From a virus (taxonomy: Duplodnaviria > Heunggongvirae > Uroviricota > Caudoviricetes): a stretch of 64,000 nucleotides of DNA. The stretch is from the IMG/VR virus record IMGVR_UViG_3300048925_000677, positions 53,569-117,568 of that record. One strand, written 5' to 3'. Numbering within the stretch: position 1 is the stretch's first letter; each line of letters opens with the position of its first letter. The notes under the pieces are model-generated. The model searched no databases, was not told where the DNA came from, and was given only the letters and a program-made list of their open reading frames with translations. A program made the position numbers and the translations under genes. Below are positions 6,899 through 41,830 of the stretch, in pieces.

Positions 6899-6927
6899 TT
6901 GACAACTACGGTCATGCCCGCTAGACT
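6899..6927 (+). promoter_or_regulatory. SigA-type promoter P3 (TTGACA-17-TAGACT), extended -35 GTTGACAACTAC
   Basis: ttgaca 6899-6904, tagact 6922-6927; gene start 6961. Confidence 0.55.
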
Positions 6928-6960
6928 AGACGTATAAGCAATCAACCGGAAGGCAAGAAA

Positions 6961-7476
6961 ATGAGCGAATCAACCGCCGAAATGCTGGCAAAGCAGGTCG
7001 ACTACGCCGCCGAGAGGATCGCCGAGTACGCGCGACAGATCGAATCGGGCGACTACGGCAACCGGTGGACCGTCACTGATTCGGAAACTGACGAAGAACA
7101 CGTCATCATTGCGCAGGATGAGGATAGCGCCATTGACGCTGTGCGTGACCTCATCCCCGGGGTGGTCAAGGATCACGAACTGCTAGCCGAGCGCGACGAA
7201 TTCGAAGTGCCGACCATCTGCGATGAGGATGGCAACGAAGAATCAATCGAGGATTGGCCCCTGGCCGTCGTCGTCAAGATCGGTCAGCCGCTCGCAGTTC
7301 AGATCGCGGTGGGCGGACCGCACATTGAGATTGTGCAGGACTTGAGCGAAGGCAGCGCCAAGCTCGCTGGCTACTGGGGTGGTGAGCGCGTTTACCGCTA
7401 TGGCGACAAGTTCCAGACCGTACTGGACTACTTCACCGACCTGCTGTGGGACGAAGCTCCGGAGGAATACAAGTGA
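6961..7476 (+). CDS. hypothetical acidic protein
   Basis: 171-aa ORF. Confidence 0.5.
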   Translation: MSESTAEMLAKQVDYAAERIAEYARQIESGDYGNRWTVTDSETDEEHVIIAQDEDSAIDAVRDLIPGVVKDHELLAERDEFEVPTICDEDGNEESIEDWPLAVVVKIGQPLAVQIAVGGPHIEIVQDLSEGSAKLAGYWGGERVYRYGDKFQTVLDYFTDLLWDEAPEEYK

Positions 7477-7634
7477 TATACGCCGAAGGCAAGATCGTGC
7501 TAGACGATGGCGAGACCATCGAGTTCTACATCGACGTCGATGGGAACATATCCCGTTGGGGCAATACGAACCGCATCCTTGGGTTATCGGTGGACGCAAC
7601 AGAGGCATTCCGCGACGCATTACTGGAGGTGTGA
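7473..7634 (+). CDS. hypothetical small protein
   Basis: GTG 7473 in GTGA overlap with upstream stop; (V)IYAEGKIVLDDGETIEFYIDVDG... Confidence 0.4.
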   Translation: MIYAEGKIVLDDGETIEFYIDVDGNISRWGNTNRILGLSVDATEAFRDALLEV

Positions 7635-19017: not shown

Positions 19018-19797
19018 TCATACCGGTCGGAGTTCGGTCGAGTAGACCGAACGCTTGCCGCGCGACCAGGAACCGCAGCCGTCTTCCATGCAGCGATACC
19101 GCTGGTAGGCAAACGATGTCGTGTAGAAGAACCCACGCTTGTGGATGTTCTCCGAACCGCACTTCGTGCACCGCGGCACGCTCTGGTCGTCGTTCTCGTA
19201 GATGGCGTAGTTGACGCCAGTCCACGGCTTGAACCGCTCGAAGAGCTGCTCAGTCAGGACCACGTCCTTCTTGTTGTAGTCCTTCATGATCTTCTGGGCG
19301 GCCCGGCGCTCGGCTCGGTTGCCGTAGCGAATGTCGTGCCAGAGGTCAGTTCCGCCGTGGTGAAGCTTGCGGTCCCCCAGCCACATACGGCTGAACCAGT
19401 CCAGCTTCAGGCTGAGTTCACCGGCCTTGAAGTTCTTCTTCGCGACCTGCATCAGATCGAGGCTGCGAGCTGGTGACGGCGGGCCAAGCTGCAGCCGGCC
19501 AAAGGCTGACTGCAGGTGTTGGATGTCGAAGCGGGTCGAGTTCCAGCCGACGATGATGTCAGCCTCGTCGATCAACTTCCAGGCGGCCCGGATCATCTTC
19601 TCGAAGGCCTCGGTGTCGTCGTCTTCCCACGCGGCGTGGAAGTGGACCTTATCTTCGCCATACCACTTAGCGGCGAAGGAGAGCACGCGCTTGTCGACGA
19701 CAACACGGTCGATCCCGATGTACTTGGGCCACAGGTCGAATGACTCGACAATGGCCCTTTGGCACTCAATGTCTAGCGTGAGAATGCGAGGACTCAA
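19018..19797 (-). CDS. DEDD-family 3'-5' exonuclease with C-terminal zinc ribbon
   Basis: LTLDIEC (Exo I), GWNSTRFDIQHL (Exo II), C-terminal CTKCGSE..CMEDGCGSW. Confidence 0.65.
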   Translation of the reverse strand: MSPRILTLDIECQRAIVESFDLWPKYIGIDRVVVDKRVLSFAAKWYGEDKVHFHAAWEDDDTEAFEKMIRAAWKLIDEADIIVGWNSTRFDIQHLQSAFGRLQLGPPSPARSLDLMQVAKKNFKAGELSLKLDWFSRMWLGDRKLHHGGTDLWHDIRYGNRAERRAAQKIMKDYNKKDVVLTEQLFERFKPWTGVNYAIYENDDQSVPRCTKCGSENIHKRGFFYTTSFAYQRYRCMEDGCGSWSRGKRSVYSTELRPV

Positions 19798-19807
19798 GCG
19801 AGCCTCC

Positions 19808-20686
19808 TTAAGTTTCTAGCACTTCGGTGAACGGCGCTTGGTAGTCGTCGCGATAGGAGATTGGCCAGCCGTCGTTCTCCCCCGGGAAGGGGTCGCCCTT
19901 CTGGACGAACCAGGCGTATCCGGCGCGCGTGACGCAGATAGTGTCGTCATCGGCGGTGTGGGTAACCCGCACTCCAACCGGGACATCCGCAAGGGATTGC
20001 CAAACTCGCGGTACGGGTTCCGAGTAGGTTTCCTCGACGCGCACACCTCGGGAGAGGGGCGACTCGGCGACGTAGTCGCCAAGGGGAATCCATCCGTCCT
20101 TGAGGACGTTGCGTGTCGAGTTCATCTCCCACTCGGTGATGAATCGATAGTGGAAGCCACCGCCGGTCCAGACGTAGTCGATATTGGCCTCGTCCAGTGA
20201 CTTGATGGTCAATGGCGGCTCACGGTCATCGGTATCGACGACCTTCAGCTCGACGTGCGCCGGGACCGGATTCGGGTACTTCTCCAGGAGTGCCGCGGCC
20301 TTGACGTTCAGGTCGGCCTGCCAGTTGTCGGGCAGGCTCGGCGGGCGGTCGTCCACCCAGTTGCCGCGGAACTGACTGTCGCGCAACACCACGAGGCAAG
20401 CGATGGCCTTTACGAGATGGGACAGACCCGAGTCAGGGTCGATATCCTGACCCTCCCAGAAGGCGTCCACGTGGCGAGTGAAGGCGTCGTAGTAGACACT
20501 GGCGCGCACGCCGGCCTCGCGGTAGTTGTGGCGCCCATACTTCAGCGCGCCTTCCATCATCGCGAGTCCGACCTCGGCCATGACCTCGCGGGGCACGGTG
20601 GAGGCGGGCACCTTGGCGATGCCGATGGCGTCCTTGGGGTTGGTATCCTTGCGCTCGCTCATCGGCGGTCCAATGCTTCGATCCAT
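19808..20686 (-). CDS. dATP/dGTP pyrophosphohydrolase-like N-terminal domain protein
   Basis: 292 aa. N-terminus NPKDAIGIAKVP..EGALKYGRHNYRE resembles the phage dNTP-diphosphohydrolase N-domain family. Confidence 0.4.
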   Translation of the reverse strand: MDRSIGPPMSERKDTNPKDAIGIAKVPASTVPREVMAEVGLAMMEGALKYGRHNYREAGVRASVYYDAFTRHVDAFWEGQDIDPDSGLSHLVKAIACLVVLRDSQFRGNWVDDRPPSLPDNWQADLNVKAAALLEKYPNPVPAHVELKVVDTDDREPPLTIKSLDEANIDYVWTGGGFHYRFITEWEMNSTRNVLKDGWIPLGDYVAESPLSRGVRVEETYSEPVPRVWQSLADVPVGVRVTHTADDDTICVTRAGYAWFVQKGDPFPGENDGWPISYRDDYQAPFTEVLET

Positions 20687-20976
20687 GCGGCAATCACCGC
20701 AGCGGCTTGAATGAGTTCGACGCGCAGGAGTGCGGGGTCCGTCTCGGCGTAGGCCTCGGCGATCTCCTCATCGAGGACGTGGCGCCAGGTCCCATTGCCG
20801 GCGGCAAAAGCGGCCTGGCATCGTGCGCGCGCATCATCGGCGGAGAAAACGCTGAAGATACCGCCGGTGCCGTCGGGGTGGTTCTGCTCGCCCCACTTCT
20901 CGTCCTGGGCCTCACGCTCGGTTTGAATATCGGCGAGGACGCGGACTGTTGCGCGGTGGGCCTCAAAGGTTGTCAC
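20659..20976 (-). CDS. hypothetical protein (MazG-like?)
   Basis: 105 aa, EREAQDEKWGEQNH motif. Confidence 0.35.
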   Translation of the reverse strand: MTTFEAHRATVRVLADIQTEREAQDEKWGEQNHPDGTGGIFSVFSADDARARCQAAFAAGNGTWRHVLDEEIAEAYAETDPALLRVELIQAAAVIAAWIEALDRR

Positions 20977-21347
20977 GCGTCCACCAGCTCACGGTGGCGG
21001 TCGAGGGCGGCCTGGCCGTCGGGTTCGGCCTTGTAGACCGAACCATCCGGAAAGACAAGCGTCATCCCAAGTTTCGCGCCGACGTGCACCTCAAGGTTGG
21101 CGCCCTTGGAGTTCTCCCAGCCGGGGAGGAGCACGATCTTGTTGCACCGCTCAGCGAGCAACACCAGGTCACGACGGAGGTAGGTATCCCACGGCTGGTC
21201 CGGGCCGATCTCGGCGTCGAACTCAGCGGGATTGATCACCTCTTCACCCGCGGCGCGCAACTCGGCAGCCTTGGCGTGAAATGCCGGGTGGTTGAAATCC
21301 TTGATGCCGGACATGGGCCCGGCGACATGAACACAATTCTTTGCCAT
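20973..21347 (-). CDS. nucleoside 2-deoxyribosyltransferase-like (DUF4406-type) protein
   Basis: 124 aa; LLPGWENSKGANLEVHVGAKLG motif. Confidence 0.55.
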   Translation of the reverse strand: MAKNCVHVAGPMSGIKDFNHPAFHAKAAELRAAGEEVINPAEFDAEIGPDQPWDTYLRRDLVLLAERCNKIVLLPGWENSKGANLEVHVGAKLGMTLVFPDGSVYKAEPDGQAALDRHRELVDA

Positions 21348-21420
21348 TGCAGTTCCCCTGTGTTTGGCGAATTAAGTTGTGGCGGTTTCACTTTCGAAGG
21401 TCGGAAACGGCCGAAGGACC

Positions 21421-21675
21421 CTAGCTTTTGAAACGACTCCAGAAGTCGGTCGACATCAAGTCGTGCTTCGCGGGGCTCGGGATCGCGTTCGCCAGGTGCA
21501 ATGTCACCTGGGCGCCGACGGCGATAATGAGCAGGCGGGCGAGCACCGGATGTTTCACAATCCAGCGATCACACTCGGCGGACAGCAGTTCGCCTGGCTC
21601 GCAAGTCAATTCCCAGTGGACGATGTCGACGATGATCATCAGCCACTTCTGTTTGGCCTTCACCCGACCGGCCAC
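21421..21675 (-). CDS. hypothetical protein
   Basis: 84-aa ORF. Confidence 0.35.
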   Translation of the reverse strand: MAGRVKAKQKWLMIIVDIVHWELTCEPGELLSAECDRWIVKHPVLARLLIIAVGAQVTLHLANAIPSPAKHDLMSTDFWSRFKS

Positions 21676-21920
21676 CTCCGCGGGATGTGCGGGTAGACAT
21701 ACACCTCTTCAAGAGGTCTCTTGTCGATCTCGCAGACCCGCTGAGTGGGGGCGCTGGCCGTCAGCATCCGAAAATGGCTCGAACCCAACCAAGAGGGTCG
21801 GCCAATGCCGCAATTGGGGCATGCGTCGATAAGCTGCATGAACTGCCTCCGATTCGGAGTGAACAGAAAGAACAAAGCCGACCCATCGGGGAAGGAATCA
21901 CCCTGTGCGCACAGGGGCAA
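21660..21920 (-). CDS. hypothetical protein with CPNC motif
   Basis: 86-aa ORF; real start possibly internal (MQLIDACPNCG..). Confidence 0.3.
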   Translation of the reverse strand: MPLCAQGDSFPDGSALFFLFTPNRRQFMQLIDACPNCGIGRPSWLGSSHFRMLTASAPTQRVCEIDKRPLEEVYVYPHIPRRWPVG

Positions 21921-22311
21921 TGGGTCGGCCGGGGCGCAACCTCGACCCGCACCGGGGAGGCGCCCAAGCGCTAAAAAAGACGACCCCCCGGTAACTCAAA
22001 CAGCGCTGAGAAAGAGAGGTCGCTGGGTTCTGCTGGGGGATCGTCTTTGTTCGATGCGACTAGTCGTCGAGGATTTCATCCTCGTCTTCGTCGTCATAGG
22101 AATAACGCCCGGATCGAGCGTCTTCCAAGATGTTGTCCACGTTGTTCAATCCGGTTTGCGGATCGACATAGGGATCTCGCGGCATTGCTGTACTCCGGCT
22201 TCTGCCGGTCAACGATGCAGCTCACGAGGCTTTCCGGCCTGCCCAGGTGACGTTTGCTGAGGAACTGTTCTCCTCACCTTCGTCACCAGGGCAAATGGCC
22301 GTGACCTGCGA

Positions 22312-23037
22312 TTATTCAGTTTTTCTGATGTACGCCTTTTTCGCGGCGTCTCGTCGACATTGTTTGCACTGCGATTGCAGGCCGTCGGCATTCCTGCCAT
22401 GCGCAGAGAAGTACTGTAGGCCCTTCGACTTCTTGCAGTTGCTGCACACTTTGCGCGGACCCTCATTGACGCCGAGCAGTGGAATGTCCTCTTCCGAGGA
22501 GCCCCAGTTGTCGACGTCATCGAGGTGCCGCATCAGTGATTGACGCTCATGCAGTCGTTGATTCCTGGCCCGGTCGTTCCCGTCGTCGACCGCGGCGCAG
22601 ATGGTCGGCGAGAGGTAGGCGATATCGCCCGGGTCGACCGCGATGGCGAATGCCGAGTCCTGGGTATCCCAGTCGTTGGCGGGGTCGTACGCGTCGAGAT
22701 CGTCGTCGGAGATTAGGCCGCTCTCGTAGCCCAGCTTCTCCTTGTCGCGGGCGATACTGCGCTTATTCTCGCCCGCCGATTCTCTGAGGAGTTTGTCCGC
22801 TAGTCGCTCAAGCTCCTCGTCGGCGCCATACTTGACGACCCCAAGGTGCGCTGATTCTTCGGTCAGTTACCACTCCTCGCAGGTTGTGCCGTCCGGGTGG
22901 TCAAACCCGGACGCGATGACCTCAAAGCCAGTGAAGCTGTCGTGGACGAAAGCCCTCAATTCCCAGTAGTCGCCGACCTCGCCGCAGGCGGGGCATTCGA
23001 CACCGGGAATGAGGACGTCATCCCATGGGCGCTTCAC
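22312..23037 (-). pseudogene. 242-codon reading frame interrupted by a single in-frame TAA (22867-22869); pseudogene, readthrough or two coupled genes
   Basis: GTG 23037 (GTGA overlap with the Namat stop) through ..TTCEEW then TAA, then the same frame stays open for 185 codons to the stop at 22312. The post-TAA segment has no ATG/GTG/TTG before Met 22533. Confidence 0.4.
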
Positions 23038-24506
23038 GCCGCGGCAAGCACCGCACGGACGTTGGCGAAGTCCTGGAATTGCAGGAACTTCCCGTCCTCC
23101 CAGATGGGCTGCAGCAGCGAGTGGACCTCTTGGTACCCCTCGGCCTGCTGATGCAGCACCAACTCGCCCCCAGGGCCAGGCAGCACCGCGAGGCGCCCGG
23201 TGGCGGACTTCTTGGTGCCGTCGTCGGTGATCGGGTCCTTCAGCAAGTTCACGCCCCTGCCGTCAACCCTTGCCCAGGTGGCCTTCATTGCCGAACCGAA
23301 CGTGTCCCGCGTGTTGTACTGGTAGGTGAAGCTGCCGACGCCGAATACGACGTTGGACGAGGCCCAGTCCTGGCGTTCCAGGTTGTCAGTGATCGACTTG
23401 GCCCGCTCCACGGTGATCGAGTCGCCGTAGATGACTCCGACGTGCGAATCGAGTTCGTCGTAGCCCTTGGAGTTGGTGGTCGACCCGAAGGTCTGCTCCA
23501 GCAAGCTGAGAACGCCGAAGAAGGCGGGGCTGTCGAGTTCCGCGTCCGGATCGCCGCACAGGATCTTCTCCGGATCACCGCTGTCCGGCCGGATCACCAG
23601 CTTGCCGTCGCGCGCCAGGATCTTGTCCTTGAGCGCCGGGAGGTACTCGGTCAGCACCTTCCAGAGGTCGAAGGTGTCCGAGACGACCGACACGATGCCC
23701 GTCGGGTACAAGTCCAACAGGCGCGAGAAGGTCTCCAACTCACCGTGCGTGGCGATGCCGGTGCACATCACTGAGTGCTCGGTGGCGGCCACGCTGCCGG
23801 CGACATACTCGCCGCCGTAGTAACGGTCGATCCAGTCGAGCGCCGGCAGTGAGTCGGTGCCATTGAACGACAGCAGGTGAGCAGCGCCGGACACCGCAGC
23901 GGTCTCGATACTCGACATTCCCCGCATGGAGAAGTCGTGGATCTGCCAGTCGACGACGGCCCGGTCAACCCCAGTGCGATCCGCCGCGGCTTCCATCACC
24001 CGTCGGTACCGGTGGGCAATGGTCGCCGATGTACTGGCCTGCCAGTAGCCGGCGGAAATTCCGGTCTCGACATAGTTGGTCAGCCAGCCGAAGTCATCAT
24101 CGGTGTTCTCCACGGTGAAGCTGGGCACCCGGATTGGGACCAGCGTGCCCTCCTGGACCGCGCAGAAGCGCAACGGCAGGAATCCCTTGCGGTGCAGGGC
24201 TCGGATGTGGTCGGAGCCGATGTCGTTCGGACCGAGGATCTGCGTGGTGCGCTCCTCGTACAGGCTGCACACCAGATCCTCGTCGGCGGCGAAGAACGGC
24301 TCGAAAGCCTCGACGAGGTGGGCCTGAATGTACGCCTGCAACCCGAAGTGCACGACGCGGTCAACGCCCTCGATGCGGGACTTCCGGTTGGTGAAGTTCG
24401 AGTAGACCCGGGTGACCTTGCCGCTCAGTTCGTACTGCCGGCGGTGGTCGAGCTTGTAGGCGTCGGTCTGGAAGAGTGCCGCCACGGGGGCGAACTTAGC
24501 TGTCAT
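23034..24506 (-). CDS. NAMPT-family phosphoribosyltransferase (NadV-like; candidate Namat of NARP1)
   Basis: 490 aa; VVSDTFDLW and RPDSGDP NAMPT signature motifs. Confidence 0.75.
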   Translation of the reverse strand: MTAKFAPVAALFQTDAYKLDHRRQYELSGKVTRVYSNFTNRKSRIEGVDRVVHFGLQAYIQAHLVEAFEPFFAADEDLVCSLYEERTTQILGPNDIGSDHIRALHRKGFLPLRFCAVQEGTLVPIRVPSFTVENTDDDFGWLTNYVETGISAGYWQASTSATIAHRYRRVMEAAADRTGVDRAVVDWQIHDFSMRGMSSIETAAVSGAAHLLSFNGTDSLPALDWIDRYYGGEYVAGSVAATEHSVMCTGIATHGELETFSRLLDLYPTGIVSVVSDTFDLWKVLTEYLPALKDKILARDGKLVIRPDSGDPEKILCGDPDAELDSPAFFGVLSLLEQTFGSTTNSKGYDELDSHVGVIYGDSITVERAKSITDNLERQDWASSNVVFGVGSFTYQYNTRDTFGSAMKATWARVDGRGVNLLKDPITDDGTKKSATGRLAVLPGPGGELVLHQQAEGYQEVHSLLQPIWEDGKFLQFQDFANVRAVLAAA

Positions 24507-24682
24507 TCCATATATCCCTTGGATTTGAGTTCCCGCTTCACGCCGTCGGCGAGTCTGCGCATGAACCAGTCGAAATGTTCTTCACCCACCGATTCGCCTA
24601 GGGCGGCGGTGGGTGATCCCGCATATCGGTTGGTGAGCACCTGGCGATCTGGCGTCTCCACCCGGATCTCGAACTTCCACAT
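24503..24682 (-). CDS. hypothetical small protein between Prs-like and NadV-like genes
   Basis: ORF 24503..24865 trimmed to ATG 24682 (MWKFEIRVETPDRQ..). Confidence 0.4.
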   Translation of the reverse strand: MWKFEIRVETPDRQVLTNRYAGSPTAALGESVGEEHFDWFMRRLADGVKRELKSKGYME

Positions 24683-24699
24683 CGGCGGAGGACGCTCTG

Positions 24700-25572
24700 T
24701 CACCGCGACCTGACCATGGCCTCGTACATCGCCGTGTAGACGGGCACGATGGTGGTGGCGCACCCCACGCGGTTGTGGCCAGGGTGCGAGTCGGTTGTGA
24801 GGATGTGCTCGTAGTAGTTGCTCAGGTTGGTTGCGGCTCCCGAGAAGATCCCGTGCGTCACCCACAGCGCCAGTTGAGATTTCGGCACCCCGGCCGCCTG
24901 GGCGAGCAAGGCGAACGTCCCGCCACCATCGCAGATGTCATCCACCACGAGGTGTCGCTTTGTGGGATCGAGTTTCGGCAGGTCGTAGGACCGCAACGCC
25001 CCCGTCTCGAAGTTGCGCTCCTTGCGGGCGACGATCAGTGGCACATTCAGCTTGTCGGCGACCACGCTAGCCCGGTCAACGGCGCCCTTGTCTGGCGCGA
25101 TCACTGTGTCGAACCTGACCGACCCAACCTCGCCATCGGTGACTGACCTCAAACTCTTGAGCGCTCGCTCGATGAGTGGCCAGACGTCAACGTTGACGAA
25201 GTTCTCCACCCGCTTGGGTATCGCCGGGGAGTGAGGATCGAGAACGTACACCCGTGATGCGCCAAGGGCATTGATGAGCCTGGCGTATGCCTGCCCACCG
25301 CAGGGGATGCCGCGATCCGCGCGGGCCGCCGGAAGGTATGGCAGCATCAGTCGAAATTCGGTACCCGCCTGGGCGGCAGCCTGAGCAAGAAGGGCTGCCG
25401 CGACAAGGTCGGCCGGATCTGCGCCGCGGACATCGGCGAAGAACAATCCCTGCCACGTGGCCTCTGCGTACGTGTTCTTGAGGTCATACTCTCCGCCGGG
25501 GAACTGGAATACCTCAGCAGCCGCGTCGATAGTTCCCGTGTGAGACGAGTAGTACTTGAGGTGAACGGTCAT
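24700..25572 (-). CDS. ribose-phosphate pyrophosphokinase-like protein (Prs-like; candidate Adps of NARP1)
   Basis: ORF 24700..25911 trimmed to ATG 25572 (MTVHLKYY..). PRPP-binding loop VVDDICDGGGT. Confidence 0.65.
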   Translation of the reverse strand: MTVHLKYYSSHTGTIDAAAEVFQFPGGEYDLKNTYAEATWQGLFFADVRGADPADLVAAALLAQAAAQAGTEFRLMLPYLPAARADRGIPCGGQAYARLINALGASRVYVLDPHSPAIPKRVENFVNVDVWPLIERALKSLRSVTDGEVGSVRFDTVIAPDKGAVDRASVVADKLNVPLIVARKERNFETGALRSYDLPKLDPTKRHLVVDDICDGGGTFALLAQAAGVPKSQLALWVTHGIFSGAATNLSNYYEHILTTDSHPGHNRVGCATTIVPVYTAMYEAMVRSR

Positions 25573-26876
25573 GCCGCGCTTTCCAGGTCGATCTCCTCGG
25601 CGTCGAGGAGTTTGGTTTCGTGGAGCAGGAACGCCGGCGCCTTGGCCTTGAGGATCGTCGGGACAACGCCGTCCTGGCGGATGCAGATACCCTCGTCGAC
25701 AGTCTTCTTGTCCGACAGTGGAACTGGGGACTCGACGAAAATGGGGCCATGGGTCTGCATCTCTGCGTATCGCTTGTCCATGTACAAATTGACCATGGCC
25801 TCGACGTCGAGGCTGTTGCCAGCCGGATGCGGATGAACACCCGGGACTCGGGACAACTCTGGCGCCCACTTGAGACCCCGGGCCGTGCAGAATTCCTTCA
25901 CGCCGTCCCATGACAGGTCGGCCAAAGTGCCCTGCGCGTTGATGGTGGCCACCCGGTAGACGTACAACTCCGCCGAGCCCTTGGGCTGGTCATAGGTGTA
26001 GCCCTTCTGGATCGGCCCGCCGTCCGGGGTCCAGCCGATCAGCTCCCCGTAAACGATGTAGCCGTCCGGAATGAGGTCTGCGATCTTGCGGCCGTATTCC
26101 GTCCAGATGTCGGTGGCGTAGTAGTGCGCCTGGCGGGGGTTGTTGACGTCCTTGATCACCTTGCGGCTGCCGAAGACCGCGTCGTAGACGTGATCGGCCG
26201 TCGGGAACCAGCGGTTCAGGAACTTCTCGACGCGGCCCTTCTCGCGCAGGCAAGGCACCCGGCCGACGCGGATTGACGTCCCGTGCAGCTTCTGGGTGAC
26301 GATGGCCTCGCGGGTATCGGCGAGTAGATGCTTGTTGCGCCAGTAGTTGTCGGTCGAGATGTGCTCGGGGAACTGCTTGGTGGTGACCCGCTTGAACGCC
26401 TTCTCCAGCTTGTTCGCCGGCGAGTTCGGGTTGCCCTTGATCGGCAGCTCGTACTTGCGGCAGATCTCGTGCCCGTTGACGGTGTCGAAGGTGTCGCCCT
26501 CACGGAGGGTCGCCGGATCGATTCCGGTGAAAGCCAGCGATTCCAGCGGCATCAGCAGCGCGTCGGAGCGGTGGCCGCGGAGCTTGATCGCGCGGATGCG
26601 GCGGTTCTTCTCCAGGTAGCCGGCCTCGGTCTTGTCGGCGTTCAGCTCCGAGTCGCGGTACAGGTTGTTCTGCGACGTGAACGCTTCGGACAGTTGGGTT
26701 TCCGCGGTGAAGGCGACCTTGAGATCTCCGACCGCTACTCCGTCGCGCTGGGTCAAGGACTGGTGCCCGAGGATCGGGACGCCGACGAGGTTGTCGAGGC
26801 CGTTCAGGTCGACAGTCACTGGGACCTTCACGATCTGGGCGGCATAGTTGGCGTTCTTGGGTGCGTCAAAAGTCAT
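25569..26876 (-). CDS. ATP-dependent RNA ligase (Rnl2-like nucleotidyltransferase)
   Basis: 435 aa; motif I QKLHGTS (compare T4 Rnl2 KIHGTN), YGELIGW, ILKAKAP (motif V). Confidence 0.6.
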   Translation of the reverse strand: MTFDAPKNANYAAQIVKVPVTVDLNGLDNLVGVPILGHQSLTQRDGVAVGDLKVAFTAETQLSEAFTSQNNLYRDSELNADKTEAGYLEKNRRIRAIKLRGHRSDALLMPLESLAFTGIDPATLREGDTFDTVNGHEICRKYELPIKGNPNSPANKLEKAFKRVTTKQFPEHISTDNYWRNKHLLADTREAIVTQKLHGTSIRVGRVPCLREKGRVEKFLNRWFPTADHVYDAVFGSRKVIKDVNNPRQAHYYATDIWTEYGRKIADLIPDGYIVYGELIGWTPDGGPIQKGYTYDQPKGSAELYVYRVATINAQGTLADLSWDGVKEFCTARGLKWAPELSRVPGVHPHPAGNSLDVEAMVNLYMDKRYAEMQTHGPIFVESPVPLSDKKTVDEGICIRQDGVVPTILKAKAPAFLLHETKLLDAEEIDLESAA

Positions 26877-26879
26877 GCG

Positions 26880-27077
26880 CTACGTCCTCATTGATTCACG
26901 GATGGTGACGCCGTGGCGTCCCGCCCAGTCGCGGATGTTGTCAATGGCCGTTTCCAGCTCCATGTAGGCGTCGTCCAAGGTGACCTGGTAGTCCAGGCGT
27001 TCGATGTATCCCTTGGCTGTGTTGATATGGCCTATGGCCTGCCGAAGGGACACCTCAACGACGTCGGAGTTGCTCAT
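26880..27077 (-). CDS. hypothetical protein
   Basis: ORF 26880..27311 trimmed to ATG 27077 (MSNSDVVEVSL..), ATGA-coupled. Confidence 0.4.
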   Translation of the reverse strand: MSNSDVVEVSLRQAIGHINTAKGYIERLDYQVTLDDAYMELETAIDNIRDWAGRHGVTIRESMRT

Positions 27078-27337
27078 GCCAGCTCCAGGTAGTTCGGATC
27101 GGTAATGCCAAGGGCTTTCAGGTCTTCGACGGTCAATTGCCGCTCGTGCCCCGTGGCGAGGTGCTTGTTCCAGTAGTCGGGGTGCTCGTGATAGCCAGCG
27201 CCCTGCTTGCGGATGAGGGTTGAGACCTTGCGATTCACGATGTTGGCGCCGGCGGATTCCCAGCACATGAACTCGCCCTGCCAGCAGGCGGCATTCAGGC
27301 ATTTCGAGCAAACGGTGATAGTTGGGTCATAGATCAT
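27074..27337 (-). CDS. hypothetical protein (zinc-binding?)
   Basis: 87 aa; CSKCLNAACWQGEFMCWE. Confidence 0.45.
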   Translation of the reverse strand: MIYDPTITVCSKCLNAACWQGEFMCWESAGANIVNRKVSTLIRKQGAGYHEHPDYWNKHLATGHERQLTVEDLKALGITDPNYLELA

Positions 27338-27549
27338 TCGTCCTCCAGATCTTCTTGGAGGAGTTCAATAGCCCGAGTGAGCGCGTCCTTACGCGTCGAG
27401 CGCGTCTCGGTGTAGTCAGCACTCTCGCCCAGTGCCGGGTAAAGCACCGTGTAATCGACGTCCCACGAGATATGGGTCGCAACCGGCCTCTGTTCACCTG
27501 CCGCGCGGACATGGGTGAAGTCTTGACTGATTCGCAACGCAGTGATCAC
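27334..27549 (-). CDS. hypothetical protein
   Basis: ORF 27334..27642 trimmed to GTG 27549 (GTGA overlap). Confidence 0.35.
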   Translation of the reverse strand: MITALRISQDFTHVRAAGEQRPVATHISWDVDYTVLYPALGESADYTETRSTRKDALTRAIELLQEDLEDE

Positions 27550-27734
27550 ACACAACCTCCGTATGGGCTCCACATCCCGTGGACGCCTTCGTATCTGGGA
27601 TATCCGCAGCCTTGACAGAGGTGGCCGTACGCCCACACCCACTCGAAATCGGCCCAGGCGAAGCTGCCCAACTCGGCCGATGGATTGATACGCGTGTCGA
27701 TCAGGGTGTCGAGATAGATCGGCGTATCAGCCAA
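27546..27734 (-). CDS. hypothetical protein
   Basis: 62-aa ORF. Confidence 0.35.
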   Translation of the reverse strand: MADTPIYLDTLIDTRINPSAELGSFAWADFEWVWAYGHLCQGCGYPRYEGVHGMWSPYGGCV

Positions 27735-27936
27735 TCGTCAACTCCCACCGCAGCGACGACCCGTCGGAAAAGGTGACAACGGCAAGCTGTCGCCTTATCA
27801 CCTCTTCTTCGATTCCGAAGGTGGCGCCTGGGAAATTCTGCTTCAGCCACTCCTCGGCGGTACCGTGAAACAGCGCATGGTGAAATTCCCCGAGTTGGAG
27901 CTTGGCCTGAAAAGCTTGCTGCTGGCCGAACATCAC
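27727..27936 (-). CDS. hypothetical protein
   Basis: 69-aa ORF. Confidence 0.4.
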   Translation of the reverse strand: MMFGQQQAFQAKLQLGEFHHALFHGTAEEWLKQNFPGATFGIEEEVIRRQLAVVTFSDGSSLRWELTIG

Positions 27937-28400
27937 GCCTTGGCCTGCTCGGCGCCGACAATCACCAGCACGCTCTTGCGCTCCAGCAACGCTCGGATGT
28001 AGTCCTCACCCTCGGGGACCACGACGGCCTGTGCCTTGAGTCGCGCTGCGAGCCACTCGGTCTTGGTATTCAGCCCGGACTTAGTGGCCACCAGATCAGC
28101 GGACGCGGGCAAAGGCAGCAACTGACCCTCGTGGGCCATCTCGTGGACGCCCTTGCGCTCCTTGCCGCCCTCCTTGACGTGCTCGACCAGGATGGTCTTG
28201 GCGCCGGCGAGCGTGCGCATGAAGGTCCGCAACGAGGAGTTCGTTGAGTAGAGGTGCATCACCTTGACGTCGTCGTAGCGCGCCAGGGCGGGTGCGAACC
28301 GGGCGACCGCCTGGGCGATCAGTTCCTCGCGGCGCTGGTTCTCCTCCAGGATGATGCGGTCAGCCTCGTCGTTGTCGACGGCGAACATGGGCTCGGTCAT
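27933..28400 (-). CDS. hypothetical protein
   Basis: ORF 27933..28430 trimmed to ATG 28400 (MTEPMFAVDND..), ATGA-coupled. Confidence 0.45.
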   Translation of the reverse strand: MTEPMFAVDNDEADRIILEENQRREELIAQAVARFAPALARYDDVKVMHLYSTNSSLRTFMRTLAGAKTILVEHVKEGGKERKGVHEMAHEGQLLPLPASADLVATKSGLNTKTEWLAARLKAQAVVVPEGEDYIRALLERKSVLVIVGAEQAKA

Positions 28401-28702
28401 TCGGCCACCGGCTTGTAGACGATGGGCCATGTGGAGAGGTACTCGAACGACTCAGGGGAACTGCATCGACCCGAAGTGAGTCGATGGACGAACCACTGGT
28501 CGTTGACGCCATCGCTCACCTTGACTGCGACATTGCCGTCATCGTCAGCGCGCACCGTCCCAATGGGGTCTGGCGCACGAAGTTCGTTCAAGCAGTCGAT
28601 GAACCCTCGGGCGAGTTCTTCCCAGCCGAGGCCATCCGTCTCGTAGAGGTAATCACCGAGCTTTTCGGCCTCGTCATTGGTCAGCTCGATAGCATCGAAC
28701 AT
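28397..28702 (-). CDS. hypothetical acidic protein
   Basis: ORF 28397..28762 trimmed to ATG 28702 (MFDAIELTNDE..). Confidence 0.4.
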   Translation of the reverse strand: MFDAIELTNDEAEKLGDYLYETDGLGWEELARGFIDCLNELRAPDPIGTVRADDDGNVAVKVSDGVNDQWFVHRLTSGRCSSPESFEYLSTWPIVYKPVAE

Positions 28703-28805
28703 GGTTAATTCACCAATCGTTGAATTTCGGGGGTCGCAGTCCTTCCCAAGAGGGCTGGCCAAAGCGTCTTGGCCCCCCGTGGACCGGCGTCAGCCGGTCG
28801 CCCAG

Positions 28806-29207
28806 CTACACCGCGACGGACCCCCACGGATCTTCAGAATCCGGGGGTTTGTATTGACTGGATGTGCGACTGTCAGGAAACTGTTTAGCGTTACCCTCAG
28901 GAAACTTTTTGGGGCTCAAATGCGTCGGGATTCGAAGCTCGAACACCGCCGCGATCCGGCCCCTCTCGCCCTTGGTTCCGCGCGAGGTTTCCCACAACCA
29001 GCCGGCGGCCTTGAGTTGCTTGACCGCCTTGCTGACGGTGCCATTGCTCATGCGGCATTCCTCGGCGAGTCTGCGATAACCCGGGTGGGCGTTGGACCCG
29101 TCCTTGGAGGCGTAGGTCAGCAAAGTGACCAGCACGCGATACTCCGCGTGGGTGAGCGACGCGTGGCGCAGTAGCTGTAGGTACTTCAGCTTGTTGAACT
29201 GCGCCAC
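28806..29207 (-). CDS. winged-helix DNA-binding protein (replication-initiator/MarR-like)
   Basis: 133 aa; YRVLVTLLTYASKDG..RLAEECRMSNGTVSKAVKQLKAAGWL. Directly upstream of the primase-helicase gene. Confidence 0.55.
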   Translation of the reverse strand: MAQFNKLKYLQLLRHASLTHAEYRVLVTLLTYASKDGSNAHPGYRRLAEECRMSNGTVSKAVKQLKAAGWLWETSRGTKGERGRIAAVFELRIPTHLSPKKFPEGNAKQFPDSRTSSQYKPPDSEDPWGSVAV

Positions 29208-29219
29208 AAGTCACCCCCC

Positions 29220-30584
29220 CTAGAACATGCCCTCGGCCATCGGGGGCGGAGGCTCTTCGAGGCGGCGCTCCATCTCGAACCAGGTCGGATTGCCGAACCG
29301 ATCCTCGACACGCTTGAGCACCCCGCGGGCGACCATCGCGTCGAGCTTGCGCTCAGCCTTCTTCTTCTCGCTGCCGTTGGGACGCTTGCAGTCGTAGATC
29401 CACTGAGCGGCGGTGTCGGCGTCAAGCCCCGCCTGACCGGCGTTGCGCACGAGGACCAACAGATCGATCTTGCGAACCGAGAAGCTGCCGCTATCGGGGT
29501 CGAGAAGAATCTTCCATGGCCCGACCTCGTTGGCCGGCGTCTTGGCATGCCGGAAACGCACCTCCAGGTCGCCAGGCTCGCCGGACAATGTCACGATGGA
29601 CCCGGCGCCGGAGGTGATCCACGTTGATCCGTAGACCTCGGAGACGCTGCCGTTGCTCCCCGCGTCCTGGTTGGGCTTCTTGATGTGGTGCAGTTCGCAG
29701 ATGTTGCAGCCGATAGCCAACAGGCTCTGGCGGGCCCGGTTGTACAGGGCGCCAACCTCATCGGTGGAGAGCCCCACCGCAGCGTCCTTGAGCGAGTCGA
29801 CGTACACCACGCCCGCTCCGACGGCCTCGGCCATCCTTGCGAGCAGGGTGGGGTCGACGGCCATGTCGTTGATCGGCGGCCCCGGGCGAATGAGGAGGCG
29901 ACCCTTGGCGGCGTCCATCTCCTCGGCTGAGAACTGTCGCCGCATCGACCGGCGCAACTGCCGCGGCCGGTCCATCGCCAGGTACAGGATCGGTTTGTCG
30001 ACCTTGGCGACAGGGAGGCCGAGCACCTCGTCCTGGAACCCAAGCTGACCCCGCACAAGCTGGCCGGCCAGGGTGGACTTGCCCAATCCCTGTCCGCCGG
30101 CGAGCAGGAACGCCTCGCCTTCGGCCCAGAGGATCTCGTCGCCCTTGCCCCATAGCTCGACGACGGTGTCGTCAGCCTTGAACAGCCACTCCCCCGCGTC
30201 GACGGGCGGGTACTCGCCGAATGGGCTCGATTCCCGGGGCTCAGTGGTCGCTGGAGCGGTTTTCTCGGGTTCCGAGAGGGTAGACACCCGAGCGGGCTCT
30301 GGAGACTTCTCAGGGACCATTCTCGGGCCTTGCGCATCCGCGAAGGCGAAGCCCGAGTCAATCGTGCCCTCGACCATGTGGATGCCGTCCTCGCCGAGGT
30401 GGCCGTTCGACTCGCACGCGTCGATCAGCTTCTGACGAAGCGTGCCGCGGTCAATATCCAGCCGGCCCAGTTTGATGGCGGCGTTGTTCAGCGCCTCGTT
30501 GCGCGAACCCTTGCTGAGGCTCGCTAGTTCATCGAGTTCCTTGTCCATTGCCGCCTTGACGTAGTTGTCGGACGGCTCGACCAT
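29220..30584 (-). CDS. primase C-terminal (PriCT-like) + RepA/DnaB-like AAA_25 helicase
   Basis: 454 aa; Walker A AGGQGLGKST, Walker B VVYVDSL, RecA-like core. N-terminal helical domain fits PriCT. Confidence 0.65.
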   Translation of the reverse strand: MVEPSDNYVKAAMDKELDELASLSKGSRNEALNNAAIKLGRLDIDRGTLRQKLIDACESNGHLGEDGIHMVEGTIDSGFAFADAQGPRMVPEKSPEPARVSTLSEPEKTAPATTEPRESSPFGEYPPVDAGEWLFKADDTVVELWGKGDEILWAEGEAFLLAGGQGLGKSTLAGQLVRGQLGFQDEVLGLPVAKVDKPILYLAMDRPRQLRRSMRRQFSAEEMDAAKGRLLIRPGPPINDMAVDPTLLARMAEAVGAGVVYVDSLKDAAVGLSTDEVGALYNRARQSLLAIGCNICELHHIKKPNQDAGSNGSVSEVYGSTWITSGAGSIVTLSGEPGDLEVRFRHAKTPANEVGPWKILLDPDSGSFSVRKIDLLVLVRNAGQAGLDADTAAQWIYDCKRPNGSEKKKAERKLDAMVARGVLKRVEDRFGNPTWFEMERRLEEPPPPMAEGMF

Positions 30585-30631
30585 TGGGCCGGTGTACGTC
30601 GGGCGCTCCGGCTCTTTACCCGGGATGTTTT

Positions 30632-30949
30632 CTAGGAACCCCGTGGGAGTTCTCCTAACTGGAAGCGCTCAAAGTGGTCGCGCTTCGTCGGGGCGACGAT
30701 GGAAGACCAGTGGTCGTGTTCGGGAATCCACTGGCGGTGGCAGCGGCGGCACTGGAAGACTGGCCAACCGTTGACCTCGGTCATGCCCGTGGTCGATTTG
30801 CGGAATCGGTGGCCCCAGGCTCGGCACCGTAACGGCCCCTGATCCTTGAGCCACCCCAGGCCGGCGTTCACGCCGAACCAGAAGGCGAAAAAGATAGGCC
30901 ACTGCAACAACTGGACGTTGTCATCTAGCCACTGGTCAGCCTCGGTCAC
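30632..30949 (-). CDS. hypothetical membrane/zinc-finger protein
   Basis: 105 aa; TM segment then CRAWGH..CRRCHRQW. Confidence 0.4.
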   Translation of the reverse strand: MTEADQWLDDNVQLLQWPIFFAFWFGVNAGLGWLKDQGPLRCRAWGHRFRKSTTGMTEVNGWPVFQCRRCHRQWIPEHDHWSSIVAPTKRDHFERFQLGELPRGS

Positions 30950-31140
30950 TGATACCTCGGATCGTTGTAGTGAACGTCTTCACACAGCCACCCCTGGGTG
31001 GTGAAATCCCAGCTAGGAGGCTCCGCGTCGACGGGGTTATAACCCTCCGTCACCGCCTCATTGAGGCAGGGCCCCTGGTTCCCCCAGTAGACCCGGCCGT
31101 CGCACGTGAACTCGTAGCGGTGAAGTTCCTTGACGCCCAA
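30946..31140 (-). CDS. hypothetical protein
   Basis: 64-aa ORF. Confidence 0.4.
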   Translation of the reverse strand: MGVKELHRYEFTCDGRVYWGNQGPCLNEAVTEGYNPVDAEPPSWDFTTQGWLCEDVHYNDPRYQ

Positions 31141-36119: not shown

Positions 36120-36428
36120 TCACGCGTAGAACTTCTCGGGGCTCGTCGGGTGCTTGTCCGGGCTGTACACAACCTGCCATCCGTCGACCCGGTCATTCGA
36201 GTAGATGACACCCCTCGGCGTGTAGTCGGTGTTCGGGATGTGCAGCCAGCCTTCTGGGGTCTTGATTGCCATGTCGGCATGCGCGTACGCGCGCAGGATT
36301 GTTCCGTCGCGGCGTACCGGCGTCGGGGCGGTCACCAGGTCCAGAATGTCCTGAACTTGACGCCCAGTAAGGCCGACCTGTTGAGCGATGCGGTTGGCCT
36401 TGTTGGTAACTGTCACTGCATTCCCCAA
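36120..36428 (-). CDS. hypothetical protein
   Basis: 102-aa ORF. Confidence 0.45.
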   Translation of the reverse strand: MGNAVTVTNKANRIAQQVGLTGRQVQDILDLVTAPTPVRRDGTILRAYAHADMAIKTPEGWLHIPNTDYTPRGVIYSNDRVDGWQVVYSPDKHPTSPEKFYA

Positions 36429-37279
36429 TCTCGGGTGTGAATGTCGATCAACCAGTCGTTGATCCGGTCATAATCGGGTTCGTTTGGAAGCGAGGTCTCA
36501 AATTCAGCCTCTTGAATCCTCCTGCGCCACAGCGCAATCTCTTCCAACGCGTCGTCAATCGTGTACTCGCCGTTGCGCACCGCCATGAGGAACTCTCGCG
36601 GGCCATCGGCCATTGGAAGAGTCATCGCGCCGGTCGTGAGCAACTCGTAGCCCTGGATGAGGAGTCGGATCGTGTGCATCCCGGCCTTCGTGTCCCAGCC
36701 GTGCTTAGCGATCAACTCGGGCCGATTGGTCCGCGGCGCCTTTTTACCGGTGAACTGAGCTTCCATGCCGTTCGCGTAGCCGATGTGGCGGGCCGCCAGC
36801 CTCCGCGACAGGAACATCTGACGGTTATCCCGCAACCCGATCTCATCGGGGTGGAACAACAGGCGAGTGAACAACAAGGTCAGCACCGTCGGATTGCCGT
36901 CGGCGGCCAGCTTGGCGTATTTGCGGAGGCTGTAGAACGTGCCCTCAGTGTCGCCGGCGGACGCCTTGACACCCTCCTCGCGGCCAGAGTCCTTCAATGC
37001 GCCCGTGGCCTTGTCGATCCCGATCACGGCCTCAGCAGAGTCGAGGTAGATTCCGATGAAGTCGTGATCGGAGGTGGGGACGTTCAGCCCGTGGGCGAAT
37101 GAGCCCACTTCGCCGATGATGACCGGCTTGACATCTTGTCTCAGTGCATGAATTCCTAACCGACCGCGATGATCCCGGCCGAGTACTCGTCGGCGGTCAT
37201 CCTGCAGTCGCAGTTGGTGCAGAAGATGGTGTCCGACCCGGCGTACTGGGCCAGGTTGCGGGTATCGCAGCCCGGGCAT
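36413..37279 (-). CDS. Pol-beta-superfamily nucleotidyltransferase
   Basis: GEVGSFAHGLNVPTSDHDFIGIY (GS..DxD) motif. Start uncertain: the only canonical start, ATG 37279, overlaps the upstream gene by ~120 nt. The antisense ORF 36437..37102 is judged spurious. Confidence 0.55.
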   Translation of the reverse strand: MPGLRYPQPGPVRRVGHHLLHQLRLQDDRRRVLGRDHRGRLGIHALRQDVKPVIIGEVGSFAHGLNVPTSDHDFIGIYLDSAEAVIGIDKATGALKDSGREEGVKASAGDTEGTFYSLRKYAKLAADGNPTVLTLLFTRLLFHPDEIGLRDNRQMFLSRRLAARHIGYANGMEAQFTGKKAPRTNRPELIAKHGWDTKAGMHTIRLLIQGYELLTTGAMTLPMADGPREFLMAVRNGEYTIDDALEEIALWRRRIQEAEFETSLPNEPDYDRINDWLIDIHTRDWGMQ

Positions 37280-40279: not shown

Positions 40280-40908
40280 CAGGTACCCGCCATCAGCTCG
40301 TGGTAGTTGAACTTGGTCCCGAGGGCGTCGATGATCGACACTTGATCACCCTTCAGTCCCAGTACACGGCCGTCGTAAATACGGGCATACTTCTGCACGG
40401 TCGTCTCGTCGAGCACGAAAGCCCTTCCGAGGTCGGTGATCCGCCACCAGCCGGCCTTGCCGCCGTCCGGCCGAGGTTCTGGAACCTCCTCGATCAAGCC
40501 CCACCACGACAGTTGACTGAACTCGTGGGTCTCGCTCTTTACCAACGACGCACTGTGCGCGAAACTCTGCCCGACCAACCGAAACTGCTTGATCAGGCCG
40601 CGGGCCATCGGTGAGGTGATCTTGCGCCGGTACACCTTGGCGAACTGGCTGCAGCAGGGGCACGGGGCGCCGTCGTCAACGCGCTTACGGAGCGCGGCCT
40701 TCGCCTGCTCCAGGGTGATGGTCACGCGTACCACTCCCGTTCGCCGGCGGCGTTGTGCAGATTGCCCTGGTGCGTGCCGTGGATTCTTGTGTTCAGTGGG
40801 ACCGACGTGACGTACGTGCCCTCCACATGCACAACGACGTGCGGGTGCTTCCGGTCGCGGTCGAGGTAGACGATCTGGCCGCGGTGTGGTGCCGCCATCA
40901 GAAATCAC
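40279..40908 (-). CDS. hypothetical protein (start uncertain)
   Basis: 209-aa ORF. The Arg/Pro-rich N-terminus looks non-coding; the C-terminal 150 aa are convincing. Confidence 0.4.
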   Translation of the reverse strand: MISDGGTTPRPDRLPRPRPEAPARRCACGGHVRHVGPTEHKNPRHAPGQSAQRRRRTGVVRVTITLEQAKAALRKRVDDGAPCPCCSQFAKVYRRKITSPMARGLIKQFRLVGQSFAHSASLVKSETHEFSQLSWWGLIEEVPEPRPDGGKAGWWRITDLGRAFVLDETTVQKYARIYDGRVLGLKGDQVSIIDALGTKFNYHELMAGT

Positions 40909-41830
40909 CTTCCGCGACCTGGGCGCAGTTCAGTCCGAGTTGACGCCACATGTCCACGACCTGATCTCGGTCGTCGATCACGACCCGCACGTTGTACTTG
41001 CCGCGGATGTACTCGTTGAACAGGTGGTACTTCACCTGGTAGTCGGGAAGCTTGTTCCCGCTGGCGTCCTTGGCGTCCGCTGGCCGCATGATGAGCCGGT
41101 CGTAGGGAATGTTGTGCATGTCGAGCCAGCGCTCAGTGTCCACCCGACAGGTGTCATCGCGACCCGACATGAAGATGATGTCGACCGGGGCCTCGCCGTC
41201 GGCGCGCGGAGTGACGGTGTGGAAGATTGTCCGGACCAGCCACGCGATGTTCTCGTGGACGCTGTCCTGCAACACCTTCGAGTAGTCGAAGTGTGAGCGG
41301 ACACCGTCATGGTTGGCGACGGTGCCGTCAATATCGACGATCACGCAGTCGGGCAGGTCGTCCATGTACGGGACCGGCTCGATGATGAACGGCTCCGCGG
41401 TGATCACCGGACGCTTGGCGCGCTTGGCCTGCTGCTCGATGACCTTGTCGCCGACGTACCGGCCGCCGTCGAGCATCCGCTGGTGGTCGCGCTGGCGGCA
41501 GACCGCAGGGTCTTCGATGACGTCCACGACCTCGAACTCCACCGCCAGGCGGGTAGCCTCCTTGGCCCACTTGCGGACGTACGGAGCGTGCAGGTGAGTG
41601 GCATCCACCACGACAGATACCCCAGCCTTCAGGAACGCGAAGACCGAAGCCTGCTCGGCGATGGTCACGCGGTCCTCGTCGACCTTCTTGCCCGTCCAGT
41701 AGGAGCCCAGGAGTTGCTTGCGCAGGTCGTCCCGGCACACCACCACGGCGTCGTTCTCGTCGGCGATCTCGCGAGCCCGGGTGGATTTGCCCGACCCTGA
41801 GAGTCCGCGCATGACAAAGAGTTTGGTCAT
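40898..41830 (-). CDS. pnkp: polynucleotide kinase-phosphatase (P-loop kinase + HAD phosphatase)
   Basis: N-terminal GLSGSGKST Walker A; C-terminal VIVDIDGTV DxDGT HAD motif and later VVIDDRD. Confidence 0.75.
   Translation of the reverse strand: MTKLFVMRGLSGSGKSTRAREIADENDAVVVCRDDLRKQLLGSYWTGKKVDEDRVTIAEQASVFAFLKAGVSVVVDATHLHAPYVRKWAKEATRLAVEFEVVDVIEDPAVCRQRDHQRMLDGGRYVGDKVIEQQAKRAKRPVITAEPFIIEPVPYMDDLPDCVIVDIDGTVANHDGVRSHFDYSKVLQDSVHENIAWLVRTIFHTVTPRADGEAPVDIIFMSGRDDTCRVDTERWLDMHNIPYDRLIMRPADAKDASGNKLPDYQVKYHLFNEYIRGKYNVRVVIDDRDQVVDMWRQLGLNCAQVAEGDF

Follow-up and report, generated by a model that had tools for sequence, protein, structure and literature searches.

Introduction

NARP1 is an NAD+ reconstitution system that phages encode as an operon built around two enzymes, the ADP-ribose (ADPR) pyrophosphokinase Adps and the nicotinamide ADP-ribose transferase Namat. 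It was found in 859 phages, corresponding to 4.3% of those analysed, with Namat nearby for 97% of the Adps-clade genes, and proteins of Mycobacterium and Gordonia phages were tabulated as Namat-associated Adps and as Adps-associated Namat, the actinophage examples including Myrna, JoeDirt, UPIE, Bantam, OneUp and Octobien14 (Osterman et al., bioRxiv 10.1101/2024.02.11.579819). In the case of Mycobacterium phage DyoEdafos, purified Adps and Namat turn ADPR, released from 2'cADPR by the glycosidase RyDEP, into NAD+ in vitro, and the NARP1 genes of this phage were detected with DefenseFinder (bioRxiv 10.64898/2026.05.28.727677). Here, we analysed a 64,000-nt stretch of the IMG/VR virus record IMGVR_UViG_3300048925_000677 (positions 53,569 to 117,568 of that record; hereafter, the window), in which an initial annotation had noticed a gene pair resembling ribose-phosphate pyrophosphokinase (Prs, or PRPS) and nicotinamide phosphoribosyltransferase (Nampt). 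Judging from its sequence, we assign a probability of about 0.92 to this locus being the NARP1 operon of an uncultured actinobacterial phage.

Structures of both enzymes have been reported. The Adps of Vibrio phage ICP1 was solved with ADPR and ATP and with ADPR-pyrophosphate (ADPR-PP) and AMP; it binds ADPR in the conserved PRPS groove, with a remodelled donor site and no special insertion, while the ATP donor is contacted by a remodelled pyrophosphate (PP) loop (C215-S220) together with a beta-hairpin, K185 being essential, and Adps homologues were described as lacking the C-terminal alpha11-alpha12 module (Liu et al., PMC13586617). Mutation of K162 in the Adps of Bacillus phage SPbetaL1 identified this residue as essential, and the enzyme gave no measurable product in an assay for the synthesis of phosphoribosyl pyrophosphate (PRPP) (Osterman et al., bioRxiv 10.1101/2024.02.11.579819). 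The SPbetaL1 Namat was solved with NAD+ (9W5W) and with nicotinamide (9W5X), which revealed two elements holding the adenine of ADPR-PP, namely, a clamp helix (SCH) whose signature reads G-S-X-Phi1-X-Phi2-X-Phi3-T-R-D, X standing for an aromatic residue, and a clamp loop (SCL, beta1-beta2) that is longer than that of Nampt and donates an Arg, Lys or Tyr residue stacking on the adenine (Lan et al., PMC12774641).

Results

The locus occupies the minus strand and consists of adps (24700-25572), encoding a PRPS-like putative ADP-ribose pyrophosphokinase of 290 aa, namat (23034-24506), encoding a NAMPT-like putative nicotinamide ADP-ribose transferase of 490 aa, and, between them, a small orphan open reading frame (ORF) at 24503-24703, which is 59 aa long from the ATG at 24682 or 66 aa from the GTG at 24703. 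All three genes that the initial annotation had placed here, the NAMPT-like, the PRPS-like and the 59-aa ORF, are thus present at their positions. Both enzyme genes are on one strand, adps first and namat second, and are separated by a single small ORF, so that they lie within 10 genes of each other, the distance used as the adjacency criterion. The earlier statement that all these genes are coupled by ATGA or GTGA overlaps stands for the junction between the small ORF stop and the namat start, which reads ATGA. At the adps stop, it holds for the 66-aa form alone, because the 59-aa form starts 17 nt past this stop without any overlap, and GTG 24703 is the sole start that produces the GTGA overlap. 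The gene anatomy, the family placement of the two proteins and the conservation of their catalytic and specificity residues, as described here and below, are direct observations.

The NAMPT-like protein carries both elements of the Namat adenine clamp. Its residues 391-401, GSFTYQYNTRD (G391 to D401), follow the clamp-helix signature exactly and are identical to those of SPbetaL1 Namat, and its clamp loop reads NFTNRKSRIEGVDR versus TWTPRTSRVEDIDR in SPbetaL1, with R44 aligned with SPbetaL1 R40. Moreover, of the 19 residues through which SPbetaL1 Namat contacts NAD+, 18 recur unchanged in the window protein, the sole difference, A362 replaced by S363, affecting a backbone contact. The catalytic core is likewise kept (D15, Y17, F192, R195, D218, H244, R306 and D308), the reference in SPbetaL1 Namat being D13, Y15, F189, R192, D215, the catalytic His, R306 and D308; here, we take SPbetaL1 H245, with which H244 aligns, to be the catalytic histidine. 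The motifs SDTFD and RPDSGDP pointed out by the initial annotation were both recovered within this protein, as VVSDTFDLWK and IRPDSGDPEK.

NARP2, which combines Nampt with a bifunctional Nmnat, for example, in Vibrio phages KVP40 and VH7D, and the cellular Nampt/NadV enzymes have the fold in common with the window Namat, along with its catalytic core (D, Y, F, R, D, H, R) and RPDSG motif. What differs is the clamp: the VH7D Nampt, 32% identical to the window protein, has GGGLLQQLDRD at the helix site and, in the alignment, a clamp loop that is 5 residues shorter. Family models (PF04095, PF18127, NF006629 with 499 bits and PHROG 448 with 627 bits) match the window protein, and a HMMER search against all Protein Data Bank (PDB) sequences placed the Namat entries 9W5W/9W5X at 444 bits, as opposed to 212 bits for mammalian Nampt and 200 bits for 7YQO ('Pre-B cell enhancing factor related protein'), which we take to be the Xanthomonas (Xcc) Nampt. 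The protein is 78% identical to Constella gp124, 76% to DyoEdafos gp79 and 47% to SPbetaL1 Namat. Taken together, the sequence comparisons support the assignment of the NAMPT-like gene as a Namat, which would form NAD+ directly with a preference for ADPR-PP.

Two observations on other Namat-like sequences were made along the way. PDB entries 9KE8/9KEO, labelled 'nicotinamide phosphoribosyltransferase', score 379 bits to the window Namat, are nearer to Namat than to Nampt and contain the clamp motif variant GAQTYQRNTRD; a paper citing these entries was not found, and 9KE8 was not used as evidence. In Vibrio phage JSF14 (KY883639.1), the annotated Namat coding sequence (L005:3305-4624) lacks about 55 N-terminal residues present in the other aligned Namats, a segment that covers the D/Y nicotinamide-stacking residues and the clamp loop. 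Probably, the start was annotated wrongly, or else the missing N-terminus is to be sought in the upstream gap containing a 37-aa ORF.

For the PRPS-like protein, we aligned the window sequence with the Adps of JSF14, Bas63 and SPbetaL1, four actinophage homologues and E. coli Prs. JSF14 is an ICP1-like phage, the residue numbering of its Adps being equal to the published ICP1 numbering (PMC13586617), and the Bas63 and SPbetaL1 sequences were those of Table S1 of Osterman et al. The PRPP loop singled out by the initial annotation was confirmed as VVDDICDGGGTF. The PP (donor) loop of the window protein, D211-D-I-C-D-G-G-G-T-F220 (DDICDGGGTF), resembles DDICDGAASF of ICP1 and DDICDGGRTF of Bas63 and differs from DDLSSFGGTF of SPbetaL1, while the loop typical of Prs, DD(M/I)xDT(G/A)GT, represented by DDMIDTGGTL in E. 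coli, is absent. Window K184 aligns with the lysines shown to be essential in ICP1 (K185) and SPbetaL1 (K162), and D211-D215, G216, G217, T219, F220 and K184 are all invariant in 36 homologues. Window residues R84, H114, D161, D211, D212, D215 and F24 correspond to R87, H121, D161, D212, D213, D216 and F18 of ICP1, the last being contributed by the neighbouring protomer. The residues of the acceptor groove are common to Adps and Prs and, therefore, signal an active enzyme rather than its specificity.

An AlphaFold2 model of the protein (mean predicted local distance difference test, pLDDT, 91.4; predicted template-modelling score, pTM, 0.89) has the PRPS fold, with a template-modelling (TM) score of 0.74 to human and E. 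coli PRPS at about 21% identity, and contains a beta-hairpin at residues 183-197, with K184 at its start. The initial annotation had proposed looking for an ADPR-binding insertion in the Prs-like protein. Such a search is not applicable, because ADPR uses the conserved PRPS groove, and none is to be expected (PMC13586617).

As for a comparison with Prs models, also proposed earlier, the protein matches PF00156 and PHROG 619 (240 bits) and misses every NCBIfam Prs cut-off: TIGR01251 scores 85.3 bits with a cut-off of 113, and the ten equivalog or other-subfamily models score 30-59 bits with cut-offs of 296-536. It is 71% identical to the Adps of its closest relative, the Logan contig L010 (SRR31343364), 52% to DyoEdafos gp77, 27% to both SPbetaL1 and ICP1 Adps, and 24% to E. 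coli Prs. The Prs chain 5MP7 in the PDB scores 26.9 bits. The search output does not name its organism, which we take to be M. smegmatis; on that reading, adps would be no recent capture of a host prs gene. These comparisons support the view that the PRPS-like gene is an adps, the product of which would pyrophosphorylate ADPR rather than ribose-5-phosphate.

The arrangement most similar to that of the window is the NARP1 locus of DyoEdafos (MN234187.1; gp77 Adps, gp78 RyDEP, gp79 Namat), where adps, an inserted gene and namat follow each other in the same order with overlapping junctions. The two differ in the inserted gene, which in DyoEdafos encodes a 138-aa RyR-domain glycosidase (PF02026) acting on cyclic ADPR (cADPR) and in the window is the unrelated orphan of 59-66 aa, as well as in genome background, DyoEdafos belonging to cluster L and the window representing a cluster-J-like metagenomic phage. 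In SPbetaL1 and the Escherichia phage Bas63, NARP1 is a two-gene adps-namat operon, to which the window adds the small ORF. SPbetaL1 shares the clamp helix, the clamp-loop Arg and the Adps Lys with the window, yet the overall identity is only 47% for Namat and 27% for Adps. NARP1-AP of Vibrio phage Gary (Adps-Adpp-Namat; bioRxiv 10.64898/2026.01.28.702374) likewise consists of three genes with the extra one in the middle, but this gene encodes a Macro-domain ADPR-1''-phosphate phosphatase, which the small ORF does not resemble. NARP3, composed of a PnuC-like transporter and a NadR-like enzyme, is unrelated to the window locus.

The content of the adps-namat junction varies among phages. In the closest relative, L010, positions 6840-7510 hold a different, acidic 57-aa ORF and a 153-aa endonuclease VII/HNH ORF with the motif HVDHDH...CN, the two not being called as one gene set in that record. 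An unrelated 76-aa ORF (gp82) is found in Gordonia phage Neville, an ATPase in Myrna, a 37-aa ORF in the ICP1-like JSF14 and RyDEP gp78 in DyoEdafos, whereas the slot is empty in Tourach, WXIN and Constella. The Macro phosphatase Adpp occupies this position in 15% of NARP1 operons (bioRxiv 10.64898/2026.01.28.702374). The junction thus seems to be a place where varying cargo is repeatedly inserted, be it RyDEP, the Macro phosphatase Adpp, an ATPase, a homing endonuclease or small orphans.

Searches with the small ORF itself returned no true homologue. A tblastn search against 50,697 phage records gave only noise at E~1, a word-indexed search of 5.8 billion proteins returned the identical protein alone, and an exhaustive HMMER search against 1.84 billion representatives produced only three matches, all to multi-repeat proteins (a junk tandem repeat, DUF5338 repeats and Ig repeats), which we rejected as artefacts because their scores were summed over weak repeats. 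No Pfam family matched even at E<=10, a threshold at which DyoEdafos gp78 itself hits PF02026, and the match to PHROG 10511 (E = 2e-4) was confined to residues 1-20 and uninformative. Single-sequence AlphaFold2 predicted a beta-hairpin followed by two helices (pLDDT 71.5), for which a fold search of BFVD and the PDB gave nothing usable, the best hits having E = 0.011 (TM 0.43, root-mean-square deviation 12 A) and E >= 1.2. The contigs recovered to look for sequence variation, as a sign of selection on the small ORF, each matched the window at 100% identity.

Because the adps-namat position holds RyDEP in DyoEdafos or Adpp in other phages, both identities were examined for the small ORF and rejected. 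A local H-x-x-W (EEHFDWF) recalls H75/W78 of RyDEP, yet BLASTP gave no alignment, hhalign against 24 RyDEP homologues returned a probability of 0.2% with only this local H-x-x-W aligned, and the ORF is too short for the PF02026 domain with its H75, W78, H100 and D117. As for Adpp, neither a Macro nor any other Pfam match was obtained, and 59-66 aa is far below the length of a Macro domain.

By gene content and similarity to Omegavirus and cluster L phages, the window is of phage origin. At the DNA and protein levels, the closest matches come from Omegavirus (cluster J) and Lclasvirinae (cluster L) Mycobacterium phages and from Gordonia phages, at 73-78% identity at best, and contigs identical to it are present in JGI and Logan metagenome assemblies. 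Genes for replication, the nucleotide pool and RNA repair are found around the locus; scanning the window for Rfam families and tRNAs gave no hit. Immediately upstream of adps, and joined to it by an ATGA overlap, lies an RNA ligase gene (25569-26876, minus strand; 435 aa; PF09414; PHROG 968 at 409 bits). It is a neighbour in the same gene string that stands outside NARP1 proper, and its adjacency to adps recurs in Gordonia phage Neville. On the other side, the namat stop overlaps by GTGA with a 56-aa ORF (22867-23037, minus strand), which matched no Pfam family and is called as a gene on an identical Logan contig (L007). Scanning 21500-31000 for promoters and terminators yielded counts at shuffle expectation and no minus-strand terminator.

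The RNA ligase belongs to an RNA-repair set spread over about 17 kb of the minus strand (25569-26876, 36413-37279, 40898-41830 and 42162-43070), which further comprises an RlaP nucleotidyltransferase (PF10127), a PNKP kinase-phosphatase (PF25109 and PF13671) and a Thg1-like tRNA-His guanylyltransferase (PF04446); this set may represent a counter-defence neighbourhood against anticodon nucleases. Downstream of namat, a nucleotide-pool cluster on the minus strand (19018-21675), syntenic in L010, encodes DUF7427 and DUF4406 proteins, a 105-aa ORF with an L010 counterpart matching PF03819 MazG, a protein with a dATP/dGTP diphosphohydrolase N-domain and an RNase_H_2-type exonuclease. Elsewhere in the window, a plus-strand gene at 8981-9913 encodes a Ku70/80 beta-barrel (PF02735, E = 3e-42) followed at the C-terminus by an Lsr2 DNA-binding domain (PF23359, E = 4.5e-12), the gene of an FtsK/SpoIIIE protein is located nearby at 11057-12361, and an alpha/beta-hydrolase (BD-FAE / Abhydrolase_3, E = 1.6e-28), here in a phage genome, is found on the minus strand at 59638-60459.

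Discussion

The initial annotation had favoured a NARP1 pair over classical Prs plus NadV, and our analysis upholds this preference on several grounds, namely the adenine clamp motif, the donor loop, the catalytic Lys, closer homology to NARP1 proteins and gene order. The best matches are not to housekeeping Prs or bona fide Nampt, as illustrated by the 444 versus 212 bits of the window Namat and the missed Prs cut-offs. Given that relatives of both enzymes have been assayed, that actinophage homologues have been tabulated, and that NARP1 occurs in 4.3% of phages, the locus is best regarded as a member of a known and widespread system. From homology to assayed enzymes we infer the two enzyme activities and the anti-defence phenotype. 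In this scheme, a host NADase effector of the SIR2, TIR or SEFIR type would cut NAD+ into ADPR and nicotinamide, and Adps would then move the beta,gamma-pyrophosphate of ATP onto the 1'' hydroxyl of ADPR, giving ADPR-PP and AMP. Namat, gripping the adenine of ADPR-PP by its selectivity clamp (R44, F393 and Y397), would swap the pyrophosphate for nicotinamide and thereby yield NAD+ directly, along with PPi. With its NAD+ pool restored in this way, the phage would be able to replicate despite abortive-infection defences that deplete NAD+.

Several points weigh against this assignment. Canonical Prs is represented in the Adps alignment by a single sequence, that of E. coli. The ICP1 residue F92 of the regulatory flexible (RF) loop, which contacts the adenine, falls into a gap in the window Adps, its equivalent lacking because the RF loop is shorter in actinophage Adps; this position is not family-wide, being M in Bas63 and E in SPbetaL1. 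The expected loss of the alpha11-alpha12 module is only partly true: at 290 aa versus 315 aa, the window protein ends 25 residues before E. coli Prs and misses a linker of about 22 residues plus the terminal segment of Prs, but a short strand (274-276) and a single helix (279-288) are still seen in its model. Thus, the ICP1 Adps agrees with that of the window in the PP loop DDICDG..(T/S)F, the beta-hairpin Lys, the acceptor residues and the PRPS-like fold, and departs from it by having no short C-terminal strand and helix and by its longer RF loop with F92. On balance, the published sequence discriminators support NARP1, the F92 and C-terminal features of Adps being the ones not cleanly reproduced. 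Finally, Namat is also able to use PRPP in vitro, forming nicotinamide mononucleotide (NMN) (Osterman et al., bioRxiv 10.1101/2024.02.11.579819; PMC12774641), and some classical salvage activity is, therefore, possible.

This last property, together with the two proteins' membership in the Prs and Nampt superfamilies and a score of the NF006629 (PRK09198) model above its cut-off, fits a pathway in which the PRPS-like protein makes PRPP, the NAMPT-like protein makes NMN from nicotinamide and PRPP, and host enzymes complete NAD+. We nevertheless consider such a pathway very improbable as the role of the locus, since the Namat clamp motif is exact and that of the Nampt type absent, the PP loop is of the Adps type instead of the DT(G/A)GT loop of Prs, no Prs hidden Markov model reaches its cut-off, and no product could be measured when SPbetaL1 Adps was assayed as a PRPP synthetase. 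In addition, the window proteins are 76% and 52% identical to the DyoEdafos enzymes shown to run from ADPR to NAD+. Consistently, neither an NMN adenylyltransferase-like ORF nor the Nmnat/Nudix partner characteristic of NARP2 was found among 34 scanned ORFs of the window, a set containing all plausible ones of at least 250 aa except that cut by the window end (63101-64000), the contig itself extending beyond the window. NARP1 with Adps and Namat hence remains the preferred reading of the two enzyme genes.

The small ORF is a separate matter. The initial annotation had listed it as an unassigned third component, which does not agree with its being an orphan at a position where the gene content changes from one phage to the next. 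As the slot content varies among phages, the small ORF is best seen as lineage-specific cargo and not as a conserved component; it is probably a variable accessory or moron gene dispensable for the core chemistry. One may ask whether it is a gene at all, as opposed to a spacer of 180-200 nt between adps and namat that is open by chance. The lack of relatives would fit such a spacer, as would the weakest ribosome-binding context of the gene string, with no good Shine-Dalgarno sequence before the ATG, and the lowest GC content at third codon positions (GC3), 0.68, well under the 0.78-0.88 of its neighbours. On the other hand, its GC content at the three codon positions (0.60/0.43/0.68) is coding-like, with a low second-position value as in genes, and neither of the other two frames reaches the GC3 of the annotated one. 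Furthermore, its stop overlaps the namat start, independent gene callers report it on both JGI and Logan contigs, the predicted fold is ordered, and relatives usually show either a direct adps-namat overlap or a real gene in the slot. We, therefore, find a chance opening doubtful.

The opposite proposal, a three-gene pathway in which the small ORF acts as an accessory of NARP1, broadening its input or shielding it much as Adpp and RyDEP do, for instance, by binding or sponging an ADPR-derived signal or by inhibiting an NADase effector, draws on the same coding-like composition and ordered beta-beta-alpha-alpha prediction. It is also in keeping with the location between adps and namat, where DyoEdafos has RyDEP gp78, Vibrio phage Gary has Adpp and 15% of NARP1 operons have an extra Macro-domain gene, and with the overlap with the namat start (ATGA) and possibly with the adps stop (GTGA). 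However, none of the searches connected the small ORF to homologues or to a Pfam or PHROG family of known function, it is not RyR-like, and its ribosome-binding context and GC3 are the poorest of the string. A variable insertion site fits better with the differing or empty slots of relatives (L010, Constella, Tourach and WXIN), and we regard an accessory of this kind as unlikely. A more specific version, which would make the small ORF a NARP1 accessory of a new kind that could bind an ADPR-derived immune signal or inhibit an NADase effector of actinobacteria, strikes us as rather a long shot; if true, the small ORF would extend the reach of the operon, just as the RyDEP and Adpp genes found in this slot do.

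The locus adds one uncultured actinophage to the roughly 4% of phages with NARP1 and brings no new mechanism. Specialists would expect to find NARP1 in phages of this kind, and it is already picked up by current tools for anti-defence annotation, as follows from the DefenseFinder calls for the DyoEdafos genes. That the locus falls cleanly under the published Namat and Adps sequence rules is a useful check that these rules hold in high-GC actinophages as well. The assignment predicts that the phage would resist SIR2, TIR and SEFIR defences that act by depleting NAD+, and the orphans in the adps-namat slot, including the one described here, are reasonable candidates for inclusion in screens for new anti-defence genes.

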